Of a DNA stretch of 64,000 nucleotides, positions 23,189 through 37,280 are shown piece after piece. This DNA comes from an uncultured Anaerolineae bacterium (GTDB lineage: Bacteria > Chloroflexota > Anaerolineae > JACIWP01): NCBI GenBank assembly GCA_938049385.1, contig CALIBQ010000044.1, positions 1,680 to 65,679 on the forward strand. The letters are read 5' to 3'. The notes under the pieces were generated by a model. The model did no database searches. It was not told where the DNA came from and saw nothing but the letters and a program-made list of their open reading frames with translations. Made by a program: the position numbers and the translations under genes. Numbering within the stretch: position 1 is the first letter of the stretch; each line of letters opens with the position of its first letter.

Positions 23189-23695
23189 CTAGTCCTCGCT
23201 GTCGAGCGGCTCGCCGGCCTCAAACTGCCGCGAGCTGATTTTCTTGATGCCGTTGCGCACCTGCCGCAGTGATGCCTCCAGCGCCGCCTCCAGCTCCCGC
23301 AGTACCTGCAGGGCATACTGATCCGCTTCCTGCCGCAGGGCGTCCGCCTCCGCACGGGCGCGCTCCAGTATCTGCTCCGCCTTGGCCTGCGCCACCACCA
23401 CCTGCTCGTGCTGGGAAAGGGCGGCCTCCGCTTCCTGGCGGGCCTGTGCCTTGATGCGGTTGGCCTCTTCCTTGGCCTGGGCGAGGATGCGCTCCTGCTG
23501 TTGCTGGATGCGCCGTGCCTGCTTCAGTTCCTCAGGGATGCGGATGCGCATCTGGTCAATGATCTCGAAGACGGCATGCTCATCCACCACCACGCGGGCA
23601 GAGAAGGGCAGTCTCCACCCATCGGTCAACAGCGCCTCAAGCTGGTCAATCCACTGCAGGATATCGATCGAGCTGGTTTGTTCTGGCGTTTGCAT
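23189..23695 (-). CDS. Coiled-coil protein of the type usually found downstream of coaD (ATP synthase b/DivIVA-like hypothetical)
   Basis: IDQLE.LL..G.RLPFS..VVVD...IIDQMR..IPEE.KQA, AD.YA..VL. Confidence 0.8.
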   Translation of the reverse strand: MQTPEQTSSIDILQWIDQLEALLTDGWRLPFSARVVVDEHAVFEIIDQMRIRIPEELKQARRIQQQQERILAQAKEEANRIKAQARQEAEAALSQHEQVVVAQAKAEQILERARAEADALRQEADQYALQVLRELEAALEASLRQVRNGIKKISSRQFEAGEPLDSED

Positions 23696-23771
23696 AGTTC
23701 TGCCCCTTTACAGTGAGGGTGCTGGACCCGGAATGCCTCGGGTTCGCCGGCCGGCGCACGGCAGGCCGGCG

Positions 23772-24296
23772 TCAATCACGCAGGGAGATCATCCGCACCA
23801 GGTCATCCTTGCCGGAAAGCCCGCGCAGTTTCTCGACCAGGGCATCTCGCACGTGGGGCGGCACCATCTGTTCCACACAGCCGCCGGCGGCGGCGATTTC
23901 TTTGACGATGCTGGAGCTGAGAAAGGCGTGGGCCTGCTCGGTCATCAGGCAGACCGTCTCCAAGGTCGGCGCCAGCTTCTTATTGGTCATCGCCATCTGA
24001 TACTCCAGCTCGAAATCATAGGTCACGCGCAGTCCGCGCACAATGACCTTGGCGCCCACGCGGCGCGCGAACTCGACCGTCAACCCGCTGTAGCTGGTGG
24101 TCGTGATATTGGGGATATCCTGAAGCGCTTGCTGGACCATGCGCAGGCGTTCCTCGGTGCTGAACAACAAGTTCTTGAGAGGCCGGTCATATACCGCCAC
24201 CACCACTTGGTCGAAGATGCCGGCCGCCCGCCTGGCGATGTCGATGTGGCCGTAGTGGATCGGGTCAAACGTGCCGGGATACAGGGCTATCGTCAT
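23772..24296 (-). CDS. coaD: Phosphopantetheine adenylyltransferase
   Basis: YPGTFDPIHYGHIDI, IVRGLR..DFE.E, FLSSSIVKE. Confidence 0.97.
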   Translation of the reverse strand: MTIALYPGTFDPIHYGHIDIARRAAGIFDQVVVAVYDRPLKNLLFSTEERLRMVQQALQDIPNITTTSYSGLTVEFARRVGAKVIVRGLRVTYDFELEYQMAMTNKKLAPTLETVCLMTEQAHAFLSSSIVKEIAAAGGCVEQMVPPHVRDALVEKLRGLSGKDDLVRMISLRD

Positions 24297-24365
24297 CTCA
24301 TCCCTTCTCGGGTGGGAATATGGGCCGCGCCGCTGCCGACCCAGACTTGACTATAATTCGCTTTC

Positions 24366-24394
24366 ATTCTAGCACAATCCGAGAGCCTCGTCAA
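24366..24394 (-). promoter_or_regulatory. coaD promoter
   Basis: TTGACG-17 bp-TAGAAT with extended TG. Confidence 0.65.
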
Positions 24395-24446
24395 CTATGC
24401 GCGAGGGTCGCGAATGTTAAAACTTTCCTCCATCTTCGGGGTCGGT

Positions 24447-24475
24447 TTGACAGTCCGGTCGTCATCTGATATATT
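24447..24475 (+). promoter_or_regulatory. Promoter of the ProRS-like gene, probably giving a leaderless mRNA
   Basis: TTGACA-17 bp-TATATT; ATG begins 7 nt after the -10; no SD. Confidence 0.65.
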
Positions 24476-24481
24476 GGCGGC

Positions 24482-26116
24482 ATGCGAGCGACAAAACTTT
24501 TCTGGAACACCCTTCGACAAGCGCCGGCCGGGGTTGACCTCCCCGGTCAGCAGTTGCTGCTGCGTGCCGGCCTGATGCGTTCGCCGGCGCCATCCGTCTG
24601 GACGCTCCTTCCGCTCGGCCAGCAGGGATGGGAGAGACTGCTGGCATGCACTGTGCAGGTCGCCCGGGATGCCGGTGCACAGCCGGTCTCGTTCCCTTGG
24701 GCACGTCCGCCAGAATCCGAGAGCGGCAGGGGGGCGCGGTGGCGCTTTGGCGAGCCGGCCGGCTGGGCCGCCTGGGACACGGCGGCGCGTGAACTGCGTT
24801 CCTACCGCCAGCTTCCTCAGCTCTGGTACGCGGTACAGCCTCATATGTCCGCCCATGCCAACACCCGCGCCGGCCTGTTGGGAGGCGCCCTGGGACGCCG
24901 GCTGGAGCTGTTCGGGCTGTATCCGACGCTGAAAGAGGCGCAGGCCGGCCAACAGGCGCTCACCGCGGCATACTCGGGGCTATGGAACCGCCTGGAGCTT
25001 CCGCTGGTGGCCGCGGCGGCCGGCCCCCGAGAGGCCGCCGCCTGGCTGTGGGAGCATCCCGATGGGGAGACCGCCTTTTTCCGCTGTGCGCACTGCGGGT
25101 ATGCCGGCCTGCCGGCGGCCACCGAAGTGCCCCCGCCGTCCCAAGACACTGCCCCCATGCTTCCGATGGAAGAAGTGGAAACGCCGGACTGCACCACGAT
25201 TGCTGGGCTGGCGGATTTCCTGGGCATCTCGCCGGCGCAGACCATGAAGGTGGTCTTTTACACCCTGGAACAGGAGAATCAGGTGATCTGCGCCGTCATT
25301 CGCGGCGACCTGAATATTGATGAACAGAAGCTGGCCAGGGCGGTGGGGAATAAACCCTTCCGGCCGAGCACGGACAGCGAGGTGCGCTGGATCGGTTCGG
25401 TGCCCGGCTACGGCTCGCCCATCGGATTGACGCGAGTGCAGGTGCTGGCAGATCCATCGGTGATATCCGCCCGCAACCTGGTTGCCGGCGCCAATAAGGA
25501 ACCGTTCCACATCCGCAACGTCAACGTCGGCCGCGATTTCTTCGTGCACCAGGTGGTGGACTTGCGAGCGGTGCGTGCCGGCGACCCCTGTCCCGGGTGC
25601 GGCGAGCCGCTTGCGGAGGGGTATGGGTTTGCTCTGGGGGAGAGCATGATGCACACCGCGGACGAGGCCGGCATACCCGAAGCCCGCTATCTGGACCAGG
25701 CCGGCCAGCCCCAGCCCTTAGTCATGCTGAACATGGTCTGGGACCTGGACCGCGCCTGGGGCGCGCTGGCCGAGGTGCACCGGGATGAGAACGGCCTGCG
25801 CTGGCCGGCTCCCGTGGCGCCGGTCCATGTGCATCTGGTCGCCATCAAGCTGGACGTGCCGGAGGTGGCGCAGACGGCAGAACGCCTGTACGAGCGCTTA
25901 CAGGCCGCCGGCCTGTGCGTCCTCTATGACGACCGGGATGAGCGCCCTGGCGTGGCGTTCAAGGATGCTGATTTGCTGGGCGCGCCTCTGCGGCTCACGG
26001 TCAGCCCGCGCGCACTGGAGGCCGGCGGCATTGAGGCCAAATGGCGCACCGGCGGGGAGCCCCAGGTGGTGCCGGAGGATGCGCTGGCCTCGCTGGTTGC
26101 CCCGCTGTTGTCCTGA
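24482..26116 (+). CDS. Prolyl-tRNA synthetase paralogue with degenerate catalytic core, intact INS/YbaK-type editing domain and anticodon-binding domain
   Basis: Colinear with bacterial ProRS (QLLLRAG, SYRQLP, RGD....KL, GAN...H..NVN.GRD, LYDDRDERPGV.F.DADL.G.P) but THEE, motif 2 and motif 3 are replaced. Confidence 0.85.
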   Translation: MRATKLFWNTLRQAPAGVDLPGQQLLLRAGLMRSPAPSVWTLLPLGQQGWERLLACTVQVARDAGAQPVSFPWARPPESESGRGARWRFGEPAGWAAWDTAARELRSYRQLPQLWYAVQPHMSAHANTRAGLLGGALGRRLELFGLYPTLKEAQAGQQALTAAYSGLWNRLELPLVAAAAGPREAAAWLWEHPDGETAFFRCAHCGYAGLPAATEVPPPSQDTAPMLPMEEVETPDCTTIAGLADFLGISPAQTMKVVFYTLEQENQVICAVIRGDLNIDEQKLARAVGNKPFRPSTDSEVRWIGSVPGYGSPIGLTRVQVLADPSVISARNLVAGANKEPFHIRNVNVGRDFFVHQVVDLRAVRAGDPCPGCGEPLAEGYGFALGESMMHTADEAGIPEARYLDQAGQPQPLVMLNMVWDLDRAWGALAEVHRDENGLRWPAPVAPVHVHLVAIKLDVPEVAQTAERLYERLQAAGLCVLYDDRDERPGVAFKDADLLGAPLRLTVSPRALEAGGIEAKWRTGGEPQVVPEDALASLVAPLLS

Positions 26117-26137
26117 TGTCCCTTGTGAAAGCTTCGC

Positions 26138-26167
26138 GGCCTCCTGCCGGCCGGCAGGAGGCCTTTT
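26138..26167 (+). terminator. Intrinsic terminator
   Basis: GGCCTCCTGCCGGCCGGCAGGAGGCC followed by TTTT. Confidence 0.75.
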
Positions 26168-26239
26168 CGCTTTGGCGCGGCGGTGCGAATGGGGTATAAT
26201 GGCGGCGCGTGCATGTCATTATCACATGGGGGATTCGCG

Positions 26240-27325
26240 ATGGTCTATTACCTGATCGCCGGCCTGTGTTTCGTGGTGGGTCTCAGCGCCCTGGCTGGGG
26301 CGCTGTTCAGCCGCTCGCCGGCGCGGCGGCGAACGGCGTTCGCCGCGGTATGGGTCGTTTTCTGGGCCGTTTCCCTCGGCCTGGTCTATATGGCGGAGAA
26401 ACAATCTGCCGCTCGTCCTATGGTACAGACGCCGACCCGTTCTGCAGTCACTCCCTCTGTGACGCATACCCAGCGTCCGACAGCTACGCCGACGCCGGCA
26501 GTTCCTGCCGGCCGCGTGGCTTTCCACAGCGACCGCACCGGCGATTTCGAGATATGGGTCATCAACGATGACGGGACGAACCCTGTGCAGTTGACCTCTT
26601 CCCCCGAACGGGATATTGAGCCGTGCTGGTCCCCTGACGGTTCGAAAATCGTCTTTGCCTCGGGAAGGGATGACCCCGATAATTTGGAGCTGTACGTGAT
26701 GAACGCCGACGGGACGGACCAGCGCCGGCTGGTGGAGCTACAGCCCGGCGATGACCTGGCGCCGGCGTGGTCCCCGGATGGGAGCAAAATCGCCTTCCAT
26801 ACCAACCGCGACGGCAATCTGGAGGTTTACGTGGTCAACGCTGACGGCACAGGGTTGAAAAACCTGACCAATTACCCGGATGCCAATGACAGCCGGCCGA
26901 GCTGGTCGCCCGACGGCAGGTACATCGCCTTCGTGTCGGATCGGGACGGCAACAGCGAGATTTACGTGATGGATGCCGACGGGAGCAACCAGCGCCGGCT
27001 GACCTTTGATGTGGCCAACGATACGGTGCCGCGCTGGTCGCCCGACGGGAAGACCATCGCCTTTGAATCCACCCGGGGTGTGCGGTTGAGCATCTACCTG
27101 ATGGACGTGGATGGTTCAAACGTGCGGCCGGCCCTGCGAGAAGCGCAGGAGGATGCGGCGCCGGCGTGGGGCAACGGCGGCCGGCGCATCTATTTCTCCT
27201 CTTTGCGCACGGGTTCATGGGAGATTTTCTACGTGGACCTGGTGACGGGTGAGGAGGTTCAGCTCACGAAAGCGGAGGGGTACAACCGCTATCCGGCCTG
27301 GGGGTCGATGACCGCCGTTCCCTGA
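26240..27325 (+). CDS. Membrane-anchored TolB-like (PD40 repeat) beta-propeller protein
   Basis: Two N-terminal TMs, Pro/Thr linker, repeated P.WSPDG..IAF.S.RDG..EIYVM.ADG. Confidence 0.9.
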   Translation: MVYYLIAGLCFVVGLSALAGALFSRSPARRRTAFAAVWVVFWAVSLGLVYMAEKQSAARPMVQTPTRSAVTPSVTHTQRPTATPTPAVPAGRVAFHSDRTGDFEIWVINDDGTNPVQLTSSPERDIEPCWSPDGSKIVFASGRDDPDNLELYVMNADGTDQRRLVELQPGDDLAPAWSPDGSKIAFHTNRDGNLEVYVVNADGTGLKNLTNYPDANDSRPSWSPDGRYIAFVSDRDGNSEIYVMDADGSNQRRLTFDVANDTVPRWSPDGKTIAFESTRGVRLSIYLMDVDGSNVRPALREAQEDAAPAWGNGGRRIYFSSLRTGSWEIFYVDLVTGEEVQLTKAEGYNRYPAWGSMTAVP

Positions 27326-27406: not shown

Positions 27407-28909
27407 CTACGGCACGTAGGCGTTGTAGGTGCCGGACCAGTTGGGCTTGCTGATGAGGTTGACCACGGCCACGATGGGCTGGTTCGAAGTGATCTTCACA
27501 CTGCCGGTGAAGTTGTCGCCCAGCGGGTTGAAGGCCGAGGCCGGCACGGCGCCCGAGTCACTGCCGAAGCGGGTGTTGTAGGCGTCGCCAGAGTTGCCGG
27601 CGATGGTTGGGTTGAGCGTCAGGGCCACACTGCCATCGGGGTTATAGTAGGTGAGGGTCAGGTTGGCGGTGCTGGCGCTCAGGTTCTGGACGGCGATCTT
27701 GGACCACTGCACCCAAGCAGTGCCGGACTTCTTGCGCGGCGCGTAGGGGACGAAGATCTCGGTGGCGCCGGCGGGCACCGCCACGTAGGTGGAAGCGGCA
27801 TTCTCATCCGGCCGGTTCCAGAAGGTGTGCACGACGGCGGCCAGCGGCTGGCCGTTGGTGCAGTTGATGACCACCGAACCGTTGAAGAGGTTGCCCAGGG
27901 CGCTGGCAAAGGCCGAGGCCGGGTAGGCCGGGTTGGTCGGACTGCCGAAGCGGGTGTTGTACTCGCCCATGGTCTTCGGTTGGATGGTGTCGTTGATGGT
28001 CATCTTGGGCGTGGTACTGCCGGTCTCGAAGAACTGGATGGTGACGTTGGCCGGGCTGGTGCCCAGGTTCTGGACCATGATGTTGGAGGAACGCACCCAG
28101 GAGCCGACGGCCGGATCGCTGGTGCGGTCAACGCGGAAGACGGACGGCGCATACAGGGTGGTGGCGCCGGAGCTGACGCCTTCATAGGCGCTGGCCCACT
28201 GCCGGTAGATGTACTGCGCCCAATGGTTGGTGACCACGCCGGCAATGGGCTGGTCCGAGTGCACGTACACGGAACCCTGCCAGTTGCCGCCCAGGTTCGG
28301 GATCTTGGGGCCGGAGAGGCTCAGGTTGTAGCTCTTGGAGCGGCCGGCCTGGATCACGTCGGAGATGGGGCCGGTCACACTGCCGTCGGTCTGGTTGTAG
28401 TAATACATCTGGATGTTGGCATCGGCGGTGCCGGCGTTCTGCACGGTGATGATGGAAAAGCGGATGAGCTTGCCCGGGATGGTGCCGACGGGCTTCACCG
28501 TGGCGTAAGGGAAGTAGAGGTCGGTGCCCGGGGCATAGGTGCCGGCGTAGGCATCGCCCGTGATGCGGTCATCCACCGTGCCGTAGGTGGACTGCCAGGT
28601 CAGCATGGTCACCGCGGAGACCTTTTTGTCGGCGGAGATGACCACGGAACCGACCCAGCCATCGCCCACCGGCAGGGTGGAGGACTGGAAGACGCGCGAG
28701 CCGTAGGCATTCAGCGTGAAGGGCGAGCCGGAAACATCGTTGGCGCCGGTTTGGTCGTAGTAATCGACCGTGACGGTGGCCGTGGAGTTCTCCACGTTCT
28801 GGATGACGAAGTCGCTGTTGCCGGTGCCGGGGTTATCGGCGAACGCCGGCACAGCCATCGTCACCAGCATGGCCGCGGCCAGGATGAAAGCAAACAGTCT
28901 TTTCCGCAT
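27407..28909 (-). CDS. Secreted Ser/Thr/Asn-rich protein built from four ~120-aa beta repeats (putative major surface/S-layer-like protein)
   Basis: Signal peptide ending PAFA|D; repeats I.VQN....A.....Y...G ... GSV.I.S..P...VV; AGGAGGTG SD. Confidence 0.75.
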   Translation of the reverse strand: MRKRLFAFILAAAMLVTMAVPAFADNPGTGNSDFVIQNVENSTATVTVDYYDQTGANDVSGSPFTLNAYGSRVFQSSTLPVGDGWVGSVVISADKKVSAVTMLTWQSTYGTVDDRITGDAYAGTYAPGTDLYFPYATVKPVGTIPGKLIRFSIITVQNAGTADANIQMYYYNQTDGSVTGPISDVIQAGRSKSYNLSLSGPKIPNLGGNWQGSVYVHSDQPIAGVVTNHWAQYIYRQWASAYEGVSSGATTLYAPSVFRVDRTSDPAVGSWVRSSNIMVQNLGTSPANVTIQFFETGSTTPKMTINDTIQPKTMGEYNTRFGSPTNPAYPASAFASALGNLFNGSVVINCTNGQPLAAVVHTFWNRPDENAASTYVAVPAGATEIFVPYAPRKKSGTAWVQWSKIAVQNLSASTANLTLTYYNPDGSVALTLNPTIAGNSGDAYNTRFGSDSGAVPASAFNPLGDNFTGSVKITSNQPIVAVVNLISKPNWSGTYNAYVP

Positions 28910-29060
28910 GTTCACCTCCTGTGTGATATGTGAAAAGGATAAGGCCGCATATCGCGAACCGCTTGCAGGGCCTACGCCGGCCCTTGTACTGCTCTCATTG
29001 TAGCCGGCGGTCCCCTGAAAATCAATACCACCATCGGGTTATTTTGGGGTGATGAAGATA

Positions 29061-31305: not shown

Positions 31306-32485
31306 CCGCCGGCGCTCTCCCGGGACGAAGCAGTTCATCCAGGACGGATTCGAGCCGCGCTGTGTTGGCCTGCGCGTCGTGCCGCGTCAGGGCGACCTCC
31401 CGGCCGGCCCGAGCGAGGCGTGCCCGCAGTTCCGCGTCCGCCAGAAGCGCGCCAATCTGCGCGGCTAGGTCGTCGGGGTCGCCAGCGCGGAAGTGCAGTC
31501 CGGTCTCCCCATGGCGCACCAGTTCTTGGGGGCCGGAGTGGTTCGGCACCACGACGGGGGTGCCGGCCAGCCAGGCCTCCGGGATGATGAGGCCGGCGCC
31601 CTCTGGGCCGGCGGAGGCCAGCACCACCACATCGGAAGCGGCCAGCAGTGCCGGCACATCCTCTATCCATCCTAATAGACGCACACTGTCCCCAAGTTGG
31701 TACGTCTCGATGCGCCGACAGATGTCCTCTTTGTAGGATTGGTACATAGTGCGGGGGATGTCGCCGGCCAGGCAGAAATAGGCGCGGGTGCCGGCCTGCT
31801 GGAGCCGATGCGCGGCTTCCACCAACGTGTCCAGACCCTTCTGCGGCACCATGCGCGCCACCGAGGCTACGATGGGCCAGGGTTCGGTCAGGCCGTACTG
31901 CTGGCGCACGCCGGCGGCACGCGCCTCCAGGTTCTCGAAGCGCCGGCGATCCACCCCATCGTAAATGACGCGAATCTTGCCTCCGACGTGCCGGAAATTG
32001 GCAATGGCTACCGCGTAGGTAATGGTGATGATGCGGTCGGCCATGAGCGAGATATAGCGGTACAGGGAGCGCGTCAGCCAGCGCGGGGAGGTCCATATCT
32101 CGCGGATGTGCCAGACGTTCGGGACTCCGCTGAGCCGGGCGGCCAGCGCACCCACCGGGATGGCGCTGGAATTGGTGTACACCAGCGCGATGTGCTCCTG
32201 GCGGATCAGGCGCGTGAGCTGGAGCGTGCTGGCGATAAAGCGCCGGCCAAACTCCCATATGTCCCGCGGGCTGGAAAGCCGCTCCAGCCGACATAGGTCG
32301 AGGTAGATGATGTGGGCGCCGGCGGCCTCCAGATCGCCTACCAGGGGACCCGGATGCGGGAGCACCACCAGCGGGGTAAAGCGGCGCTGGTCCAGGTTCT
32401 GGACAATGGTCAGCAGGCCCATATCGGCGCCGCCGTACTCGGAGCGGGAGTTCAGGAACAGAATGCGTTTTGGCTCGCTTTCCAT
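31298..32485 (-). CDS. Glycosyltransferase family 4
   Basis: GT-B: VWHIRE, VIYDGVD, VARMVPQKG, EGAGLIIPEA...G.PVV. Confidence 0.9.
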   Translation of the reverse strand: MESEPKRILFLNSRSEYGGADMGLLTIVQNLDQRRFTPLVVLPHPGPLVGDLEAAGAHIIYLDLCRLERLSSPRDIWEFGRRFIASTLQLTRLIRQEHIALVYTNSSAIPVGALAARLSGVPNVWHIREIWTSPRWLTRSLYRYISLMADRIITITYAVAIANFRHVGGKIRVIYDGVDRRRFENLEARAAGVRQQYGLTEPWPIVASVARMVPQKGLDTLVEAAHRLQQAGTRAYFCLAGDIPRTMYQSYKEDICRRIETYQLGDSVRLLGWIEDVPALLAASDVVVLASAGPEGAGLIIPEAWLAGTPVVVPNHSGPQELVRHGETGLHFRAGDPDDLAAQIGALLADAELRARLARAGREVALTRHDAQANTARLESVLDELLRPGRAPADD

Positions 32486-34068
32486 TATGCTACCTCATGG
32501 GAAGCAGGGTCAGGGGCGGAACGGCGCGCCAGCCTGGCGGCTGTAACGATCATGGCGATATAGAACCACTGATAGGTGAAGTGGAAGGAATCCGCCATGG
32601 TGAGGCGGGCCATGAGGGCCAGGAAGCCGGCCAGCAGGCCGAGGGACGCCATGCGCATGAAGCGGTCGCCCCGCCGGCGCCACAGCCGGATGGCCTCGAT
32701 CCCCTCCAGGACTACGGCGATGACCAGCCATACGAAGGCCAGCAGGCCGGGGATGCCCGTCTCGGTCAGGAAGCGCAGGATGATACTGCCGCTCATCACA
32801 GGAAAAGCATCTGGATAGGCATCGGTGATGGCCTTCCCCCAATCCGGCATGTAATCGTAGAAGAAAAAGCCGTAGTTGCCGTAGCCGACGCCCCAGGGGC
32901 GGTCCAGGAACATGGCCCAGGAGGCGGCGATGGCGGTGGTGCGGTGGATGTTGCCGAAATTTTCCTCCTGGAAGGGAGAGATGAAGCGGTCACTGACCGC
33001 CTGGAGCAGGGAGGCCTGCTCCGTCACGGGCATCTGCGACAGGATGAGGCTGATGATCACAATGACAACGGCGACGCCGGCCAGGGCAGTGCCGGCGCGC
33101 GCCAGAAAACGCGGGGCGAAGACCAGCACGACCATGCCGCCCACCAGTACCGCCAGGTAGGCACTGCGGGCGAAGGTCAGCAGGAGCGCCAGGCCGGCGG
33201 CCCCCAGCGCCGCCCACAACAGCCACTGCCAGCGGCGGTCGCGCACCGCGCGGCCGGCCAGCAGGGCGAAGATCAGCGGGATGGCCCCGCTCAGGAAATC
33301 GCCGAACCACACCGGCTCCGAGGCGACGGACCAGATGCGCAGGAAGCGTCCGCCGGCCAGCGGGATGGCCCACTGCCGCGAGGCCCCGAACGATGCGCTT
33401 TGCGGAAACGGGTCTACCCCCGGCCAGCCCAGCGGGTAGGCGATGAACTGGTAGATGCCGTACAGCGACACCGCCAGGGTGGAAAGGATGAGGACGACAA
33501 CGGCGCGCCGGAACAGCCGGCGGTCCTGCACGGTCAGCACTACCACCGCATACGTGACGACCATGAGCAGGAACTGCGCGATCTGCTTGGCACTGCGGAT
33601 GTAGCGCACCTCGCCGCGATATTCCCCGGGCGGCACCTGGGCGGAGAGGAAGAACGATGCCGCGATGGCCAGCGTCAGCAGGAGGACGGCGGTATGCACC
33701 CGCGAACGCGGCCACCACAGCGGGCGTGCCCGGCGCAGTGCGCGGCAGAGCAGGAGCAGAGCTGTGAAGGCCAGGGCGGCGTAATTGGCCTGGAGGCTGA
33801 AGCCCATCTCGAGGAGGGAGAAGCGCGTCGCCGGCATCAGGAAGACGAAGGCCAGGAAAGCCCATTCGACAGGGCTTCGGCTCCGCAGGGAAAGCCATAT
33901 GCCGGCGGCCAGCACTGCCAGCCCCAGCAGGCCAAGGGCCAGGGCCAATTGGGGCACGGGGAGCAAGGCCAGCGCCAGCGCCGCGACCAGCGCGCCGGCC
34001 ATCAGCATCGCCTGCCAGAGCGGAGGATGTTCTGCCAGCCAGGAACGTGCGCTCTCCATCAGGGTCAT
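32485..34068 (-). CDS. O-antigen ligase/polymerase (Wzy_C) family membrane protein
   Basis: About 12 TMs, RIWSVASEP, LTFARSAY, DRPWGVGYGNY, LTETGIPG. Confidence 0.8.
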   Translation of the reverse strand: MTLMESARSWLAEHPPLWQAMLMAGALVAALALALLPVPQLALALGLLGLAVLAAGIWLSLRSRSPVEWAFLAFVFLMPATRFSLLEMGFSLQANYAALAFTALLLLCRALRRARPLWWPRSRVHTAVLLLTLAIAASFFLSAQVPPGEYRGEVRYIRSAKQIAQFLLMVVTYAVVVLTVQDRRLFRRAVVVLILSTLAVSLYGIYQFIAYPLGWPGVDPFPQSASFGASRQWAIPLAGGRFLRIWSVASEPVWFGDFLSGAIPLIFALLAGRAVRDRRWQWLLWAALGAAGLALLLTFARSAYLAVLVGGMVVLVFAPRFLARAGTALAGVAVVIVIISLILSQMPVTEQASLLQAVSDRFISPFQEENFGNIHRTTAIAASWAMFLDRPWGVGYGNYGFFFYDYMPDWGKAITDAYPDAFPVMSGSIILRFLTETGIPGLLAFVWLVIAVVLEGIEAIRLWRRRGDRFMRMASLGLLAGFLALMARLTMADSFHFTYQWFYIAMIVTAARLARRSAPDPASHEVA

Positions 34069-35555
34069 CGCGACCCTCCTGTGCCGGCGCCACTGCTGGG
34101 GCGCAGGGCGGCCCGCGGCCGGAGCAGTGCGGCGAACTGGCGCAGTTCACTGGCTTCCACCAGGCCCAGCGGCCGCAGCGTGGCGAGGTACAGAAGGCCG
34201 GCGGCGGCCAGTCGGAGCAGTACCGACCCAGCCGGCCATAATATGATGATGACAGCCGCCGGCAGGGCGCCGGCCGCCAGCCGTAGGAGCGGGCCGGCGA
34301 AATTATATGTCCCCAGGCCCCGGCTGACGTAATAATATCCCACGGCGAAGGCGACCACCTGCGCGGCAAGCATGGCGACAGCGGCACCGGTGGCGCCAGC
34401 GCGAGGGATGAGCCAGATGCCCAGGGCCAAGTGCGGCACCAGGGAAATGGCCAGGCTGATGGCCTCAAAATGCTGTTGCCCGAGCGCCGTCAGCAGGTAC
34501 TTGAAGGTGTAATTAGGGAACATGAAGACCAGCGACCAGACCATCAGCGCCAGTGCCGGCGCCGCGCCGCGGTACTCAGCCCCGAAAAGCAGTACCACGA
34601 TAGGTTCGCTCATCATGGAGGTGAGCACGGCGACCGGCACAGTCATGATGAGGAAGTACTTGAATATCTTCTGGTACAGGGCCAGCGCGCGCTGCCGCCC
34701 CTCGGCGTCGCGGGTCAGGTTGGAAAGCGCCGGCAGGAGGCCGGCCATGAGGCTGTCGGGCACGATGTTCATGCGGGAGATGAGCCGGTAAGGAGCGCCG
34801 TACAATCCCAACTCCAGCGCGGTTTGCAGAATCTGGAGCAGGAAGGTGTCGAGCTGGCCGTCCAGCGTGCGGAAGCCTGTGGAAAAAAGCAGGGGGAGCG
34901 ACTCCCGGAAGAAGTAGCGCAGGCGCGGCCACTGCACCTGCCAGGCCGGCCGGGCGAACTTCCACCAGACGATGATACTGCAGAAGATGAGCTTGATGGT
35001 GAATGAAAGCACCTGGAACCAGAAAATGGACAGGAAGCCCCAGCGCAGGATCATGACCAGAATCACGCCGGCCAGGAACACGCCGCGCTCGATGAACACC
35101 GAGATTGCCAGATATTTGGTGTCCTCGAAGGCGGTGAAGACGCTGGCGAACAGGTTGGCCAGCACCTGAATGATGGACGCCAGGACACTGATGTAAACCG
35201 CTGTCACGACCCCGGCTTCGCGGGTGAAGAGCGGTAGGAGCAGGACGGAGAGAAGCGCCGCCAGGATGGTAAAGACCGCCTGAACCACCAGGGCATGGGT
35301 CAGGTTCTCGCCGGCGCGCGGGCGGTCGCGTGCCGTCTCGCGGATGAGGATACTGAAGGTTCCGCCGGTCGCCAGTGTACCGATGAAGAGGGAATAGGCC
35401 ATGACGAAGGCGTAGCGGCCAAAGCCCTCGGCCCCCAGATAGCGGGTGATGAGCAGGACGGTGATGACGTTGGCAGCCAGGCCGATAAGGCGCGAGAGGA
35501 AGATATAGCCGGCGGTGGCAACGGAACTGCGTCCGACAGGGGTCTCTTCTGCCAT
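34065..35555 (-). CDS. Polysaccharide flippase (Wzx/MOP family)
   Basis: TRYLGAEGFGRY, LGLYGAPYRL, LLFGAEY..AAPAL; many TMs. Confidence 0.9.
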   Translation of the reverse strand: MAEETPVGRSSVATAGYIFLSRLIGLAANVITVLLITRYLGAEGFGRYAFVMAYSLFIGTLATGGTFSILIRETARDRPRAGENLTHALVVQAVFTILAALLSVLLLPLFTREAGVVTAVYISVLASIIQVLANLFASVFTAFEDTKYLAISVFIERGVFLAGVILVMILRWGFLSIFWFQVLSFTIKLIFCSIIVWWKFARPAWQVQWPRLRYFFRESLPLLFSTGFRTLDGQLDTFLLQILQTALELGLYGAPYRLISRMNIVPDSLMAGLLPALSNLTRDAEGRQRALALYQKIFKYFLIMTVPVAVLTSMMSEPIVVLLFGAEYRGAAPALALMVWSLVFMFPNYTFKYLLTALGQQHFEAISLAISLVPHLALGIWLIPRAGATGAAVAMLAAQVVAFAVGYYYVSRGLGTYNFAGPLLRLAAGALPAAVIIILWPAGSVLLRLAAAGLLYLATLRPLGLVEASELRQFAALLRPRAALRPSSGAGTGGSR

Positions 35556-35570
35556 CTCTGCCAACTCTAA

Positions 35571-37280
35571 CTAATCCAGGTATCCCAGGCCGCGTAGGCG
35601 CTCTTCCAGGATAGCCCGTTCCTCTTCGTTGTAGAGGTCGCCGCCAGCCGGGGTCTCCCCGCTCTCGATGGCATCGAAGTAGCGCACTGTCGGCAGGGCC
35701 TCGAACAGCTCCGCCAGCACTCGCCCGTCCAGGCCGCGCGGCACGGCACAGCCGGCCAGGTGCAGGATGGTCGGCGCCATGTCTATGATTTCCGCGCCTT
35801 CGAGTGCACGGCCGGCGGCGATGCCAGGCCCCTCCACGAACAGCATACCATAGAGCCGGTGCGTGCCGTTGGGCAGGTATTCCCGCAGGAGCTCCTGGCG
35901 TGACATGGTGTAGATGCTGACCGGGCCGGGGCTGGTGTGGCTGGGCCGCACTCGGTAATAGGGGTCCTGCCGGGGGATGAGGATGATATCGGGCGCCCGC
36001 TCCAGCTCCGTGCCGTGGTATATCTCTTCCCGCAGGCCGGCATATTCGATGACCGCTTCGCCGGTGAGAGGGTCCTTCCATTCGTGCAGGCGCTCCAGGA
36101 TCTGTCGGCGCAGTTTCTCATACTCGGCGCCGGGCTGGACAGTGCCCTGCGGCTCACGGCCGGCGAGGTTGATCCAGATGCTCTCCTGATACTCGTCCGC
36201 GTAGGCGAGGGTGTGCTCCCAATCAATGAAGAAGAAAGCGGCTGGGTAGCGGATGCGCTGGTACCAGCGCGGCGCCAGGCGCTCCAACGCGGTCTTGAGC
36301 CGCTGGGGCACCATCTGGCGCAGGCGTTCCCAGGCCGTGCGCCACACCAGCCGGCCCAGGCCGGCCGCGCTCTGGGGTGCGGCCGGCTGGCGTCGGAACC
36401 TCAACCAGCCCTGCTCCGCCAGCCAGTTGTTCAGGTAGATGACCTTGTCGCTGGTAGGGCCGAAGCCGTGATCCGACATGACGATGAGCACGTCCTCAGG
36501 GGAAAGGCGCCGGCGCACCTCCGCGACGAATTCATCCAGCCGCTGATAGACGCGCAGGATGCGGTCGCCGTATCGGCCGGCGCCGGCGGGGTCGTACTGC
36601 GGATGGGCCGGCTCCATGAACTTCCAGAAATGGTGCTGGACGCTGTCCGTGGCGCGGAAGTTCACGGCGAAGACGTCCCATTCCCCGTGTTCCAGGAGAT
36701 AACGCGTCGCGGCGATCTGGCTCTCCATGTGGCGCTCGATCTTGTCCCACAGCGCGTCATAGCGGTAGGTGCGTGCCTCTTCCTCCAGCGTTGGCTCGAT
36801 GATGTATTCCCCCAGCCGGCGGAGCAGTTCCTCCTTCAGTTCCGGCGGGTAGGTGTAGGCGCTGTCCTCGCCCGGCGTGTCCATGCCGGAGACTATGAAG
36901 CCGTCCAGCGGCTCGGGCGGATAGGTCATCACCAGGTTGACTATGCCGGCCCGGCGCCCCTGCTCGTTCAGCATGCGCCAGAGGGGCTTGCCGCGCCGGT
37001 CCGCCCCGCACACCAAGCGCGATTCGTAGGTGCCGGAGATGTGCTCTTTGAAGTAGTAGATGCCGTGCCGGCCGGGGTTGTTGCCAGTGACGAAGCTGGC
37101 CCAGGCCGGCGCGCTCACCGGCGGGATGGTGGACTTCATACGGCCGTACGCGCCGCGTTCCAGCATGCCGGCCAGCGCCGGCAGTCTGCCCTCGCGCGCC
37201 CAGCGGACGGCCAGCTCAAACACCGCACCGTCCCATCCGAGCACCACTACCTTCCGTTTGGTCAGCTCGCCGTCTGCCAT
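35571..37280 (-). CDS. Alkaline phosphatase superfamily protein (nucleotide pyrophosphatase/phosphodiesterase-like), paralogue 1
   Basis: LGWDGA, STIPPVSAPAW, D..QH.FW, SDHGFG, GTHR..G; C-terminal ERLRGLGYL. Confidence 0.88.
   Translation of the reverse strand: MADGELTKRKVVVLGWDGAVFELAVRWAREGRLPALAGMLERGAYGRMKSTIPPVSAPAWASFVTGNNPGRHGIYYFKEHISGTYESRLVCGADRRGKPLWRMLNEQGRRAGIVNLVMTYPPEPLDGFIVSGMDTPGEDSAYTYPPELKEELLRRLGEYIIEPTLEEEARTYRYDALWDKIERHMESQIAATRYLLEHGEWDVFAVNFRATDSVQHHFWKFMEPAHPQYDPAGAGRYGDRILRVYQRLDEFVAEVRRRLSPEDVLIVMSDHGFGPTSDKVIYLNNWLAEQGWLRFRRQPAAPQSAAGLGRLVWRTAWERLRQMVPQRLKTALERLAPRWYQRIRYPAAFFFIDWEHTLAYADEYQESIWINLAGREPQGTVQPGAEYEKLRRQILERLHEWKDPLTGEAVIEYAGLREEIYHGTELERAPDIILIPRQDPYYRVRPSHTSPGPVSIYTMSRQELLREYLPNGTHRLYGMLFVEGPGIAAGRALEGAEIIDMAPTILHLAGCAVPRGLDGRVLAELFEALPTVRYFDAIESGETPAGGDLYNEEERAILEERLRGLGYLD

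Follow-up and report, generated by a model that had tools for sequence, protein, structure and literature searches.

Here we describe P0001, a degenerate paralogue of the P-type prolyl-tRNA synthetase (ProRS) encoded in a 64,000-nucleotide stretch of Anaerolineae DNA (hereafter the window, to which all positions refer). As judged from its sequence, P0001 is most likely a pseudo-synthetase that has been selected for the hydrolytic site of its INS editing domain and for its anticodon-binding domain. It probably serves as an anticodon-guided trans-editing factor for Ala-tRNAPro, in which case it would be the ProRS counterpart of the crenarchaeal ThrRS-ed.

The coding sequence of P0001, delineated by open reading frame (ORF), domain and homology searches, spans positions 24482..26116 of the forward strand (544 aa, stop included). 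An earlier reading of this DNA from its letters alone (the sequence-only reading) had found no frameshift, and the frame is indeed open over all 544 residues; ORF inspection shows just 4 open codons upstream of the ATG. That reading had delimited the locus as 24447-26167, which runs from the promoter -35 box through the terminator. Its near-consensus promoter is a sigma-70-like, TG-extended TTGACA-17 nt-TATATT element (24447..24475, forward strand), assigned by consensus match only (11/12), and promoter-like sites in the P0001 region are more frequent than in shuffled sequence (4 versus 0.3 ± 0.5). With 6 nt between the end of the -10 box and the ATG, the transcript is predicted to be leaderless or nearly so. 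Downstream of the gene, a motif scan returned an intrinsic-terminator-like hairpin (26138..26173, forward strand) with an 11-bp stem (9 GC) and a loop of 4, followed by TTTTCGCTTT. The terminator claimed earlier thus has its hairpin and T-run, but the single terminator-like site in the region is no excess over shuffles (1.5 ± 1.2). Rfam models gave no match within 23500-27000 at E ≤ 0.1, neither for a T-box nor for any other leader. The neighbouring genes encode a glucan phosphorylase, a cytidylyltransferase-like protein (probably CoaD) and a PD40 beta-propeller protein, and no operon link for P0001 was seen from them.

P0001 is colinear with bacterial ProRS, as had been noticed at first reading. 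Residues 1-538 align with residues 1-558 of S. aureus ProRS 5znj (phmmer, E 7.6e-59), and P0001 is likewise colinear with 5ucm and 2j3l (E about 1e-57). The domain order of P-type ProRS is kept: a core, the INS between motifs 2 and 3, and a C-terminal anticodon domain. The AF2 model of the protein has a pLDDT of 94.5, a confidence that is partly inherited from the canonical ProRS rows in the input alignment; low confidence is confined to aa 71-90. Its best Foldseek match is E. faecalis ProRS 2j3l (TM 0.86). The NCBIfam cut-offs for bacterial ProRS (NF006625 / TIGR00409) were not reached (296.8 vs 558 bits and 200.4 vs 306.7 bits, respectively). In a six-frame search of the source genome P0001 scored 259.2 bits, and no match rose above the bacterial ProRS cut-off. 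Two annotation sources differ on such genes, one naming them 'prolyl-tRNA synthetase' and the other 'His/Gly/Thr/Pro-type tRNA ligase C-terminal domain-containing protein'; these conflicting labels affect annotation and the counts of aminoacyl-tRNA synthetases (aaRS) in Chloroflexota MAGs.

The source genome, which is 98% complete, does encode the second ProRS envisaged in the sequence-only reading, and P0001 is thus not its only ProRS. An archaeal/eukaryote-type (E-type) enzyme is found on another contig (G000:C38:28830-30242), as an intact 483-aa open frame with no stops that scores 590.6 bits (cut-off 437). This E-type ProRS is without INS, because all three tRNA_edit domains in the genome lie elsewhere. 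Two of the three are free-standing, YbaK-like proteins that lack the His at the gatekeeper column. The proposed pairing of P0001 with this ProRS holds as genomic co-occurrence, but physical pairing is not supported. Each prediction of the sequence-only reading that is open to sequence analysis was borne out. Three genuine tRNAPro genes are present, all of the bacterial type (C1:G72/A73). Further ARAGORN tRNA-Pro calls on contigs C10 and C63 look spurious (odd ends, and a length of 98 nt in one case) and were left out of this count.

The catalytic core of P0001 is reduced to two remnants, defined by alignment and residue mapping: an N-terminal part (aa 1-200; 24482..25081, forward strand) and a C-terminal part (aa 366-440; 25577..25801, forward strand). 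Pfam tRNA-synt_2b gave no match in P0001 at E ≤ 1. The motif 1 region is kept. By contrast, the other aminoacylation motifs are gone, and every string that the sequence-only reading had quoted for motif 2, the EVGHIF strand and motif 3 was recovered. Deletion or replacement has removed the TxE proline loop (aa ~79-95), with THEE (T109-H-E-E112) aligned to P92-A-G-W95 next to a deletion. Motif 2, canonically fRDE.RPR.GL.R.REF, reads QPHMSAHANTRAGLLGGALG (also given as HMSAHANTRAGLLGGALG), and E. coli R140/E142/R144/R151/R153 correspond to S123/H125/N127/G134/A136. The EVGHIFKLG strand has become ALGESMMHT (EVGHIF to ALGESM), and motif 3 reads LNMVWDLDR, in which G-x-Y-G-I-G is lost (LNMVWD) and the Arg is kept (R424). 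As a yardstick we used 78 canonical homologues, in whose alignment 154 columns reach ≥95% conservation; in the catalytic parts P0001 retains 34/75 of these columns (N part) and 9/21 (C part). Most likely, P0001 can neither activate proline nor charge tRNA, and charging is predicted to have been lost. That it is instead a still-active ProRS with an unorthodox active site appears extremely improbable. Such an enzyme would suit the predicted overall ProRS fold and the retained motif 1 region and Arg of motif 3, but replacements have hit the Arg and Glu of motif 2, the glycines of motif 3, the EVGHIF strand and the entire TxE loop, the scores are far under both curated ProRS cut-offs, and the genome has a canonical E-type ProRS as well.

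The INS editing domain (aa 229-365; 25166..25576, forward strand; Pfam tRNA_edit (PF04073), 5.1e-19) is preserved. The Pfam match covers residues 234-349 with 69 bits against a gathering threshold of 25.5, and the domain scores 73 bits in the genome-wide search. The conserved Lys, the RGD, the loop and the His region had all been read as kept, and the strings TMKVVF, RGD, VPGYGSP and GANKEPFHIRNVNVGRDF are present, with 30/33 conserved INS columns retained. The residues in question are T234, I240, L243, T254, K256, RGD 274-276, G309-YGS-P313, D324, H343 and D360. Residue mapping showed that E. coli T257/I263/L266/T277/K279/D350/H369/D386, including I263 and T277, which we take to be INS pocket residues, are all identical in P0001. 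K256, G309-YGS-P313 and H343 align with E. coli K279, GSLGP and H369, and P0001 therefore carries the Lys, GxxxP and His signature described for INS and ProXp-ala (bioRxiv 10.1101/2020.09.11.293571). K279A is reported as the standard editing-defective mutant of E. coli ProRS, and specificity is ascribed to L266 and H369, the latter blocking Pro-tRNAPro hydrolysis (bioRxiv 10.1101/2020.09.11.293571; PMC3973320).

Three conserved INS columns are changed in P0001 (N280D, A296S and G341P), two of them close to functional motifs, and E. coli G367/K368 are replaced by P341/F342, adjoining the gatekeeper His. These changes may have shifted the substrate choice of P0001. We consider it unlikely, however, that its INS acts on another or a broader substrate (Cys-, Ser-, Thr- or aminobutyryl-tRNAPro) or on other tRNAs too. 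The three column changes, which include G341P, and the altered neighbour of the gatekeeper His are found across the P0001 clade; the INS superfamily is known to vary in amino-acid specificity from member to member, and mutation of L266 is reported to move INS towards Ser (bioRxiv 10.1101/2020.09.11.293571). Against this, the Ala-specificity residues L266 and H369 and the pocket residues I263 and T277 are identical in P0001, and the two YbaK-like proteins are already available for Cys-type substrates. The anticodon domain also bears on this point: it keeps 24/25 conserved columns, which argues for tRNAPro.

This class II HGTP anticodon-binding domain (ABD; aa 441-544; 25802..26113, forward strand; Pfam HGTP_anticodon, 7.9e-15) is matched by Pfam over residues 459-539 with 55 bits. 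It is intact, as had been claimed, and so are both CxxC pairs, which were located by alignment. The first (C202, C205; 25085..25096, forward strand) lies just before the INS and presumably binds zinc; the second (C370, C373; 25589-25600, forward strand) lies in the C-terminal core remnant. The pairs are not special to P0001: CxxC is nearly invariant in degenerate as well as canonical Chloroflexota relatives, and we rejected the pairs as a peculiarity of the pseudo-enzyme since the canonical relatives carry both.

The P0001 gene is under purifying selection. The dN/dS values come from one pair, two full-length orthologues of the genus that are 87% identical, for which the overall value is 0.169. 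Neutral decay was seen in neither of the kept domains, with 0.098 for the INS and 0.153 for the ABD versus 0.322 for aa 79-200, the motif 2 region. The catalytic remnants are likewise under purifying selection (0.09-0.32), with values of 0.089 for aa 1-78 and 0.205 for aa 366-440, and a role for them beyond that of a scaffold is therefore possible. The P0001 clade comprises ten 90%-identity clusters, down to 55% identity, all of which have an open frame and conserve the residues of the INS and ABD; K256, GxxxP, H343 and D324 are invariant. The INS has the highest mean pairwise identity in 4/4 degenerate groups (0.73-0.86), whereas in 2/2 canonical groups it is the catalytic N-part that does. 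Together, the INS and ABD are the best-conserved domains of the four independent degenerate groups, and their conservation exceeds that in the canonical enzymes. Further orthologue DNA was sought in genome contigs, which returned only one 108-residue C-terminal fragment, and with generic patterns in metagenome contigs, from which 80 loci were kept, all of them canonical-type ProRS and 29-38% identical.

The constraint on aa 1-78, as strong as that on the INS, is more than a pure spacer demands. It could point to a tRNAPro binder that performs no hydrolysis and acts as a chaperone or buffer, or else senses or regulates the status of proline or translation; regulatory functions of inactive synthetase paralogues are on record, for example for HisZ (PMC5388404). 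Such a protein is nevertheless quite unlikely, because it leaves unexplained both the invariance of K256, GxxxP, H343 and D324 in the clade, with the corresponding signature in all of the 20 further loci described below, and the rank of the INS as the best-conserved domain of every degenerate group.

Genes of this kind recur across Anaerolineae. Sub-threshold P-type genes occur in 49/151 genomes, and an E-type ProRS is also present in 46 of these 49. The three without an E-type match are G031 and G066, which are 86-88% complete, and G104, whose gene is frameshifted and near-canonical. Canonical P-type and E-type enzymes are found together in 49/151 genomes, that is, in 49/80 of those with a canonical P-type ProRS. 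A P-type match at E ≤ 1e-30 is absent from 22/151 genomes, at least one of which (G084) carries the gene as a contig-end fragment; 19 of the 22 have an E-type ProRS, and the factor may thus be dispensable or replaceable. The scores form a continuum from 548 to 107 bits, and the decay series includes lineages with few-contig or single-contig genomes. We inspected 20 further degenerate loci from the 49 genomes: K, RGD, the loop S-P, His and the ABD signature are kept in 20/20 and G-x-Y-G-I-G in 0/20, and three of the loci are frames of 412-428 aa that lack the N-terminal third, so that some lineages retain little other than the INS and anticodon domain. On the tree, degenerate groups occupy at least two distinct positions, by which measure degeneration of P-type ProRS arose at least twice.

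Several of these counts, namely the frequency of dual P-type and E-type genomes, the 22 genomes without a P-type match and the continuum of scores, would also be expected of a decaying relic, a redundant P-type ProRS that is being lost after acquisition of the E-type enzyme and whose INS and ABD conservation merely lags behind. We regard this as highly improbable. Every full-length copy has an open frame, selection is purifying (dN/dS 0.17), and the ten clusters, divergent as they are, have lost neither the frame nor the residues of the INS and ABD. The conservation of the INS and ABD lies above the canonical level and is not merely residual, and the gene still has a strong promoter match and a terminator hairpin.

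A trans-editing factor guided by the anticodon could operate as follows. The housekeeping charger would be the E-type ProRS without INS, acting on the bacterial-type tRNAPro (C1:G72, A73). Mischarging with Ala occurs in E-type ProRSs, and this enzyme, as other ProRSs, would occasionally yield Ala-tRNAPro. The released tRNAPro would be bound by the anticodon domain of the pseudo-ProRS via G35/G36. The decayed catalytic core would provide a scaffold and dimer interface only, setting the distance from the anticodon site to the INS, where K256, the GxxxP loop, the L243 pocket and the H343 gatekeeper would allow Ala-tRNAPro to be hydrolysed and Pro-tRNAPro to be spared. For P0001 we infer deacylase activity, Ala specificity, anticodon dependence, dimerization and expression. 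Such a route has a parallel in full-length E. coli ProRS, which is reported to need anticodon elements, and not the acceptor stem, when it edits pre-formed Ala-tRNAPro (PMC3973320). On a broader scale, there is perhaps an even chance that, through redundancy with the E-type enzyme, P-type ProRS in Chloroflexota repeatedly became a factor ('ProRS-ed') devoted to anticodon-guided proofreading, in a series that would lead from active dual enzymes through full-length pseudo-synthetases to forms of roughly 410-430 aa with little beyond the INS and anticodon domain.

Proline codons are guarded by the INS in cis and by ProXp-ala and YbaK in trans. To our knowledge, all free-standing members of the INS family are single domains that read the acceptor stem or are without tRNA specificity, and the split of a synthetase into charging (cat) and editing (ed) proteins is known to us so far for crenarchaeal ThrRS. 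If our explanation is true, P0001 would be the first INS-family editor other than a synthetase that locates its tRNA through the anticodon, trans-editing would have a third recognition strategy in a ProRS scaffold kept for the INS and anticodon domain, and ProRS would gain a split cat/ed arrangement. The ProRS-ed series would then be a living record of trans-editing factors born from synthetases, and its graded decay in Anaerolineae a natural experiment to show which segments of a class II synthetase the geometry of editing requires. A full-text literature search found no catalytically dead ProRS that keeps the INS and anticodon domain, although the supplement of a survey of aaRS paralogues in >2500 genomes (PMC5388404) could include such sequences. 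ProRSx is the only ProRS duplicate given in the sections of a 2022 review that bear on this question (PMC9437257).

Among known systems, canonical P-type ProRS (E. coli, 2j3l, 5znj) shares with P0001 its colinear layout, domain order, editing residues and anticodon-domain family; P0001 differs in that its aminoacylation motifs are destroyed, the family cut-offs are missed and constraint has moved from the core to the INS and ABD. In B. thuringiensis, the P-type and E-type enzymes (BtProRS1/BtProRS2) are both described as active, and the E-type enzyme as charging bacterial-type tRNAPro (PMC11229370). The P0001 genome resembles it in having both ProRS types in one bacterium with bacterial-type tRNAPro, but its P-type copy appears to be without a synthetic site. 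P0001 is proposed to do the same job as ProXp-ala, that is, to clear Ala-tRNAPro in trans for a ProRS without INS, and has the same Lys, GxxxP and His signature; by sequence, however, its editing domain is a ProRS INS and not ProXp-ala. Furthermore, ProXp-ala is a single free-standing domain, reported to read G72/A73 of the acceptor stem (PMC3973320), whereas P0001 has 544 aa, with a synthetase scaffold and an ABD, and is proposed to read G35/G36.

The closest parallel drawn here is to the crenarchaeal pair in which ThrRS-cat charges without editing and its paralogue ThrRS-ed only edits the mischarged product in trans, as described in PMC3592468. The E-type ProRS would take the -cat role and the degenerate P-type ProRS the -ed role. 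As in that class, the genome also encodes an intact synthetase for the same amino acid that has no editing domain, and P0001, which selection maintains, keeps the editing and anticodon domains but not the aminoacylation motifs. The activity of ThrRS-ed is demonstrated, whereas that of P0001 is predicted. The two also differ in organism, archaeal versus bacterial, and in synthetase family, with ThrRS editing domains in one and the INS/YbaK fold in the other. Finally, the two ProRS genes belong to deeply diverged types and are not halves of one ancestral enzyme.

The pseudo-ProRS (P0001), a degenerate paralogue of the bacterial (P-type) ProRS, is encoded by a single open frame of 544 aa (window 24482–26116, + strand; only four open codons precede the ATG), free of frameshifts as the sequence-only reading had it. 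In phmmer searches it is colinear with solved bacterial ProRSs, also as claimed (5znj residues 1–558, E = 7.6e-59; also 5ucm/8w8j and 2j3l). Pfam identifies tRNA_edit (residues 234–349, 69 bits) and an anticodon-binding domain (ABD; residues 459–539, 55 bits), while the class II catalytic domain gives no hit at E ≤ 1. Two curated bacterial ProRS models give the protein 296.8 bits where the cut-off is 558, and 200.4 bits where it is 306.7. Alignment to E. coli ProS from the K-12 record confirmed that the aminoacylation motifs are gone: the TxE loop (T109-H-E-E112 in E. coli) reads P-A-G-W with an adjoining deletion; motif 2 residues R140, E142, R144, R151 and R153 are replaced by S, H, N, G and A; ALGESM stands in place of EVGHIF; and G-C-Y-G-I-G of motif 3 reads L-N-M-V-W-D, E. 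coli R450 (R424 here) being the sole residue kept. The protein thus falls short on each point that defines the ProRS family (cut-off score, motifs 2 and 3, TxE). That a protein colinear with synthetases is itself one that is still active is extremely unlikely here, and it should not be annotated as a proline-tRNA ligase. By descent, judging from these alignments, it is a bacterial-type ProRS.

The editing domain (INS) is identical to that of E. coli at T257, I263, L266, T277, K279, D350, H369 and D386, and E. coli GSLGP corresponds to GYGSP; we take T257, I263, T277 and D350 to have functional roles in E. coli ProRS. The best 120 homologues, every row retained, were sorted by these motifs into 78 canonical and 42 degenerate sequences, and 154 columns conserved in at least 95% of the canonical set served as reference. 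The pseudo-ProRS keeps 30/33 of these in INS and 24/25 in the ABD, bearing out the view that both are intact, and 34/75 and 9/21 in the N- and C-terminal catalytic parts. Both CxxC pairs singled out earlier are present, but they are common to the whole Chloroflexota ProRS lineage and not specific to this protein. K279A is the standard editing-defective mutant, and L266 and H369 tune specificity, H369 being the gatekeeper against Pro-tRNAPro hydrolysis (bioRxiv 10.1101/2020.09.11.293571, PMC3973320). An AlphaFold2 model (85-row alignment) has a mean pLDDT of 94.5, low confidence being confined to residues 71–90, the former TxE region; Foldseek ranks E. faecalis ProRS 2j3l first against it (TM 0.86, 26% identity). 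Because the alignment consists mostly of canonical ProRSs, the model indicates compatibility with the ProRS fold and is no proof of it.

The gene occurs in 3/3 genomes of its genus (those in the order), at full length and 87% identity in G041 and as a C-terminal fragment cut by the contig end in G084. For one pair, the genome of the window (G000) and G041, Nei–Gojobori dN/dS is 0.169 over the whole gene, 0.089 for residues 1–78, 0.322 for residues 79–200, 0.098 for INS, 0.205 for the C-terminal catalytic remnant and 0.153 for the ABD, the motif 1 region being under the tightest constraint. A gene with a lost synthetic site could be a decaying relic, which is very unlikely in this case; the proposed per-domain comparison reveals no neutral decay in INS or the ABD for that pair. 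Nine further 90%-identity clusters of the same clade (P0002–P0010; metagenomic, 55–85% identical) keep the frame and are invariant at INS residues 254–261, 305–313 and 331–338 and at ABD residues 483–493. Mean pairwise identity in two canonical groups is highest in the N-terminal catalytic part (0.74 and 0.63; INS 0.66 and 0.60, ABD 0.60 and 0.50), whereas in all four degenerate groups it is highest in INS (0.73–0.86), then the ABD (0.68–0.78), the lowest value always falling in a catalytic part. This comparison shows a shift of constraint between domains, and the gene is, on sequence evidence, maintained by selection.

A sigma-70-like promoter (TTGACA-17-TATATT with TG extension, 11/12 matches; 24447–24475, +) precedes the gene and an 11-bp GC-rich, terminator-like hairpin with a T-run (26138–26173, +) follows it. 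Promoter-like sites are enriched in the gene region, at four versus 0.3 ± 0.5 in shuffles; the count of terminator-like sites (1 versus 1.5 ± 1.2) is not above shuffles. Because the −10 box ends 6 nt before the ATG (24447–24484), with no Shine-Dalgarno-like sequence between them, the mRNA may be leaderless or nearly so. An Rfam scan around the gene matched no family. Next to it lie genes for a glucan phosphorylase and a PD40 beta-propeller protein and, in divergent orientation, a cytidylyltransferase-like gene, a set that does not suggest an operon. Two minus-strand proteins, of 502 aa with an N-terminal hydrophobic segment (27407–28915) and of 168 aa (23189–23695), match nothing in Pfam at E ≤ 0.001. 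AT skew is 0.18–0.26 at 32001–36000 and −0.14 to +0.15 elsewhere in the window.

P-type and E-type (archaeal/eukaryote-type, INS-less) profile searches were cross-tabulated over 151 sampled Anaerolineae genomes. A P-type gene at or above the cut-off (canonical) is present in 80, with E-type also in 49 (both apparently intact in 49/151); a match at E ≤ 1e-30 under it (sub-threshold, 548 down to 107 bits) in 49, with E-type in 46; and no P-type match in 22, a class that includes at least one false negative (G084), with E-type in 19. The sub-threshold genomes lacking an E-type match are G031 and G066 (88% and 86% complete; one gene partial) and G104, whose P-type gene is near-canonical with two in-frame TGA. 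Nine Anaerolineae genomes carry canonical P-type and E-type genes on the same strand, ~0.1–3.2 kb apart (G018:C814:7977–11306, G140:C245:15785–18996, G065:C87:3–3040, G106:C89:1528–5155, G026:C30:6601–10527, G112:C3:32213–36827, G040:C427:2981–7401, G123:C70:619–4828 and G071:C36:37080–43291).

From the sub-threshold class of 49, we retrieved 20 loci that span 110–492 bits. All 20 keep the Lys, RGD, loop S-P, His and anticodon-domain signature; G-x-Y-G-I-G is kept in 0/20 and the [FY]R[DE]E motif 2 in 4/20. Three encode short frames (412–428 aa) without motif 1, TxE or motif 2 that retain INS, a C-terminal core remnant and the ABD (L098, G036:C66:16000–19500; L099, G079:C8:450500–454000; L100, G119:C1:3999800–4003300); a partial match of this type is seen in 13/14 genomes sampled from their family (f37), several of them single-contig or few-contig assemblies. 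A quick maximum-likelihood tree was built from the 42 degenerate sequences and every second canonical one (81 in total); in it the pseudo-ProRS clade is monophyletic (support 100) and joins two other degenerate groups (97). Because two further degenerate groups nest within a canonical clade (99), apart from that grouping, at least two independent degenerations are needed, with long-branch caution. In the phylum-wide sample (201 genomes), which also supplied the f37 count and takes in one unpublished genome (G174), genus g153 has sub-threshold genes (211–230 bits, 525–538-aa frames), as judged from scores and frame lengths only (G210, G269, G285, G309, G325 and G340). Since its family is labelled 'same phylum' and not 'same class', the phenomenon may extend beyond Anaerolineae. 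The dead-ProRS pattern recurs widely in Chloroflexota.

G000 (3.37 Mb, 85 contigs, 98% complete) contains no second P-type ProRS gene in a genome search. The suspected INS-less partner was found: an intact E-type ProRS on contig C38 (TIGR00408 590.6 bits, cut-off 437; stop-free 483-aa frame), so the pseudo-ProRS is not the sole ProRS. The E-type frame ends in Tyr, as is typical of such enzymes (PMC11229370). The three genuine tRNAPro genes (UGG, CGG, GGG) all combine C1:G72 with A73, as bacterial tRNAPro identity requires, and the E-type enzyme must therefore serve bacterial-type tRNAPro, as B. thuringiensis ProRS2 (E-type) does (PMC11229370). Two further tRNA-Pro calls made by ARAGORN, at C10:46110–46185 and C63:4230–4327, are apparently spurious, given their irregular ends or length (98 nt in one case); the program also predicts two tRNA-SeC(tca) genes in G000.

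The genome search found three tRNA_edit domains in G000, INS of the pseudo-ProRS and two free-standing YbaK-like proteins (C60:30887–31402, +; C12:32329–32901, −) that score under the YbaK equivalog cut-off (TIGR00011 99.6 and 80.1 bits, cut-off 153) and whose nearest solved relatives are YbaK, APE2540 and TTHA1699. Lys, GxxxP and His define Ala-tRNAPro editors (bioRxiv 10.1101/2020.09.11.293571). Because the two free-standing proteins have Ile or Val in place of His in the gatekeeper column, only the pseudo-ProRS domain bears the full signature in G000. An editor of shifted substrate range is unlikely, and a tRNAPro binder that uses the retained ABD without catalysis is a distinctly unlikely reading.

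ProRSs misactivate Ala. Pre-formed Ala-tRNAPro is edited by full-length E. coli ProRS in an anticodon-dependent manner without need of the acceptor stem, whereas ProXp-ala reads the stem and YbaK neither (PMC3973320). By analogy, a ProRS scaffold with ABD and INS would be a competent tRNAPro-specific trans-editor needing no aminoacylation chemistry. The pseudo-ProRS has lost its synthetic site, retains INS and ABD under selection and has a partner enzyme; it is probably an anticodon-guided Ala-tRNAPro trans-editor beside the E-type ProRS. We infer an expressed, dimeric protein whose activity, specificity and anticodon dependence would be as follows. The E-type ProRS would supply Pro-tRNAPro plus some Ala-tRNAPro; the pseudo-ProRS would rebind tRNAPro through G35/G36, its decayed core acting as spacer and dimer interface; and INS would hydrolyse the alanyl ester, H343 protecting Pro-tRNAPro. 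The finding is real, and the interpretation first offered for it is the best-supported one.

Full-text searches of the main text of mostly open-access papers brought up no account of a dead ProRS that keeps INS and ABD, nor did passages of an aaRS paralogue survey (PMC5388404) and an aaRS-duplicate review (PMC9437257). The pseudo-ProRS belongs to the INS/YbaK/ProXp editing superfamily and bears the INS/ProXp-ala signature, but is not a ProXp-ala, which is a single domain reading the acceptor stem; in kind it is a trans-editing synthetase paralogue. In B. thuringiensis, P- and E-type ProRS coexist and both are active (PMC11229370). Established assays make the reading directly testable. The closest functional precedent is the crenarchaeal ThrRS-cat/ThrRS-ed pair (PMC3592468), of which the pseudo-ProRS, if a trans-editor, would be the bacterial ProRS counterpart.
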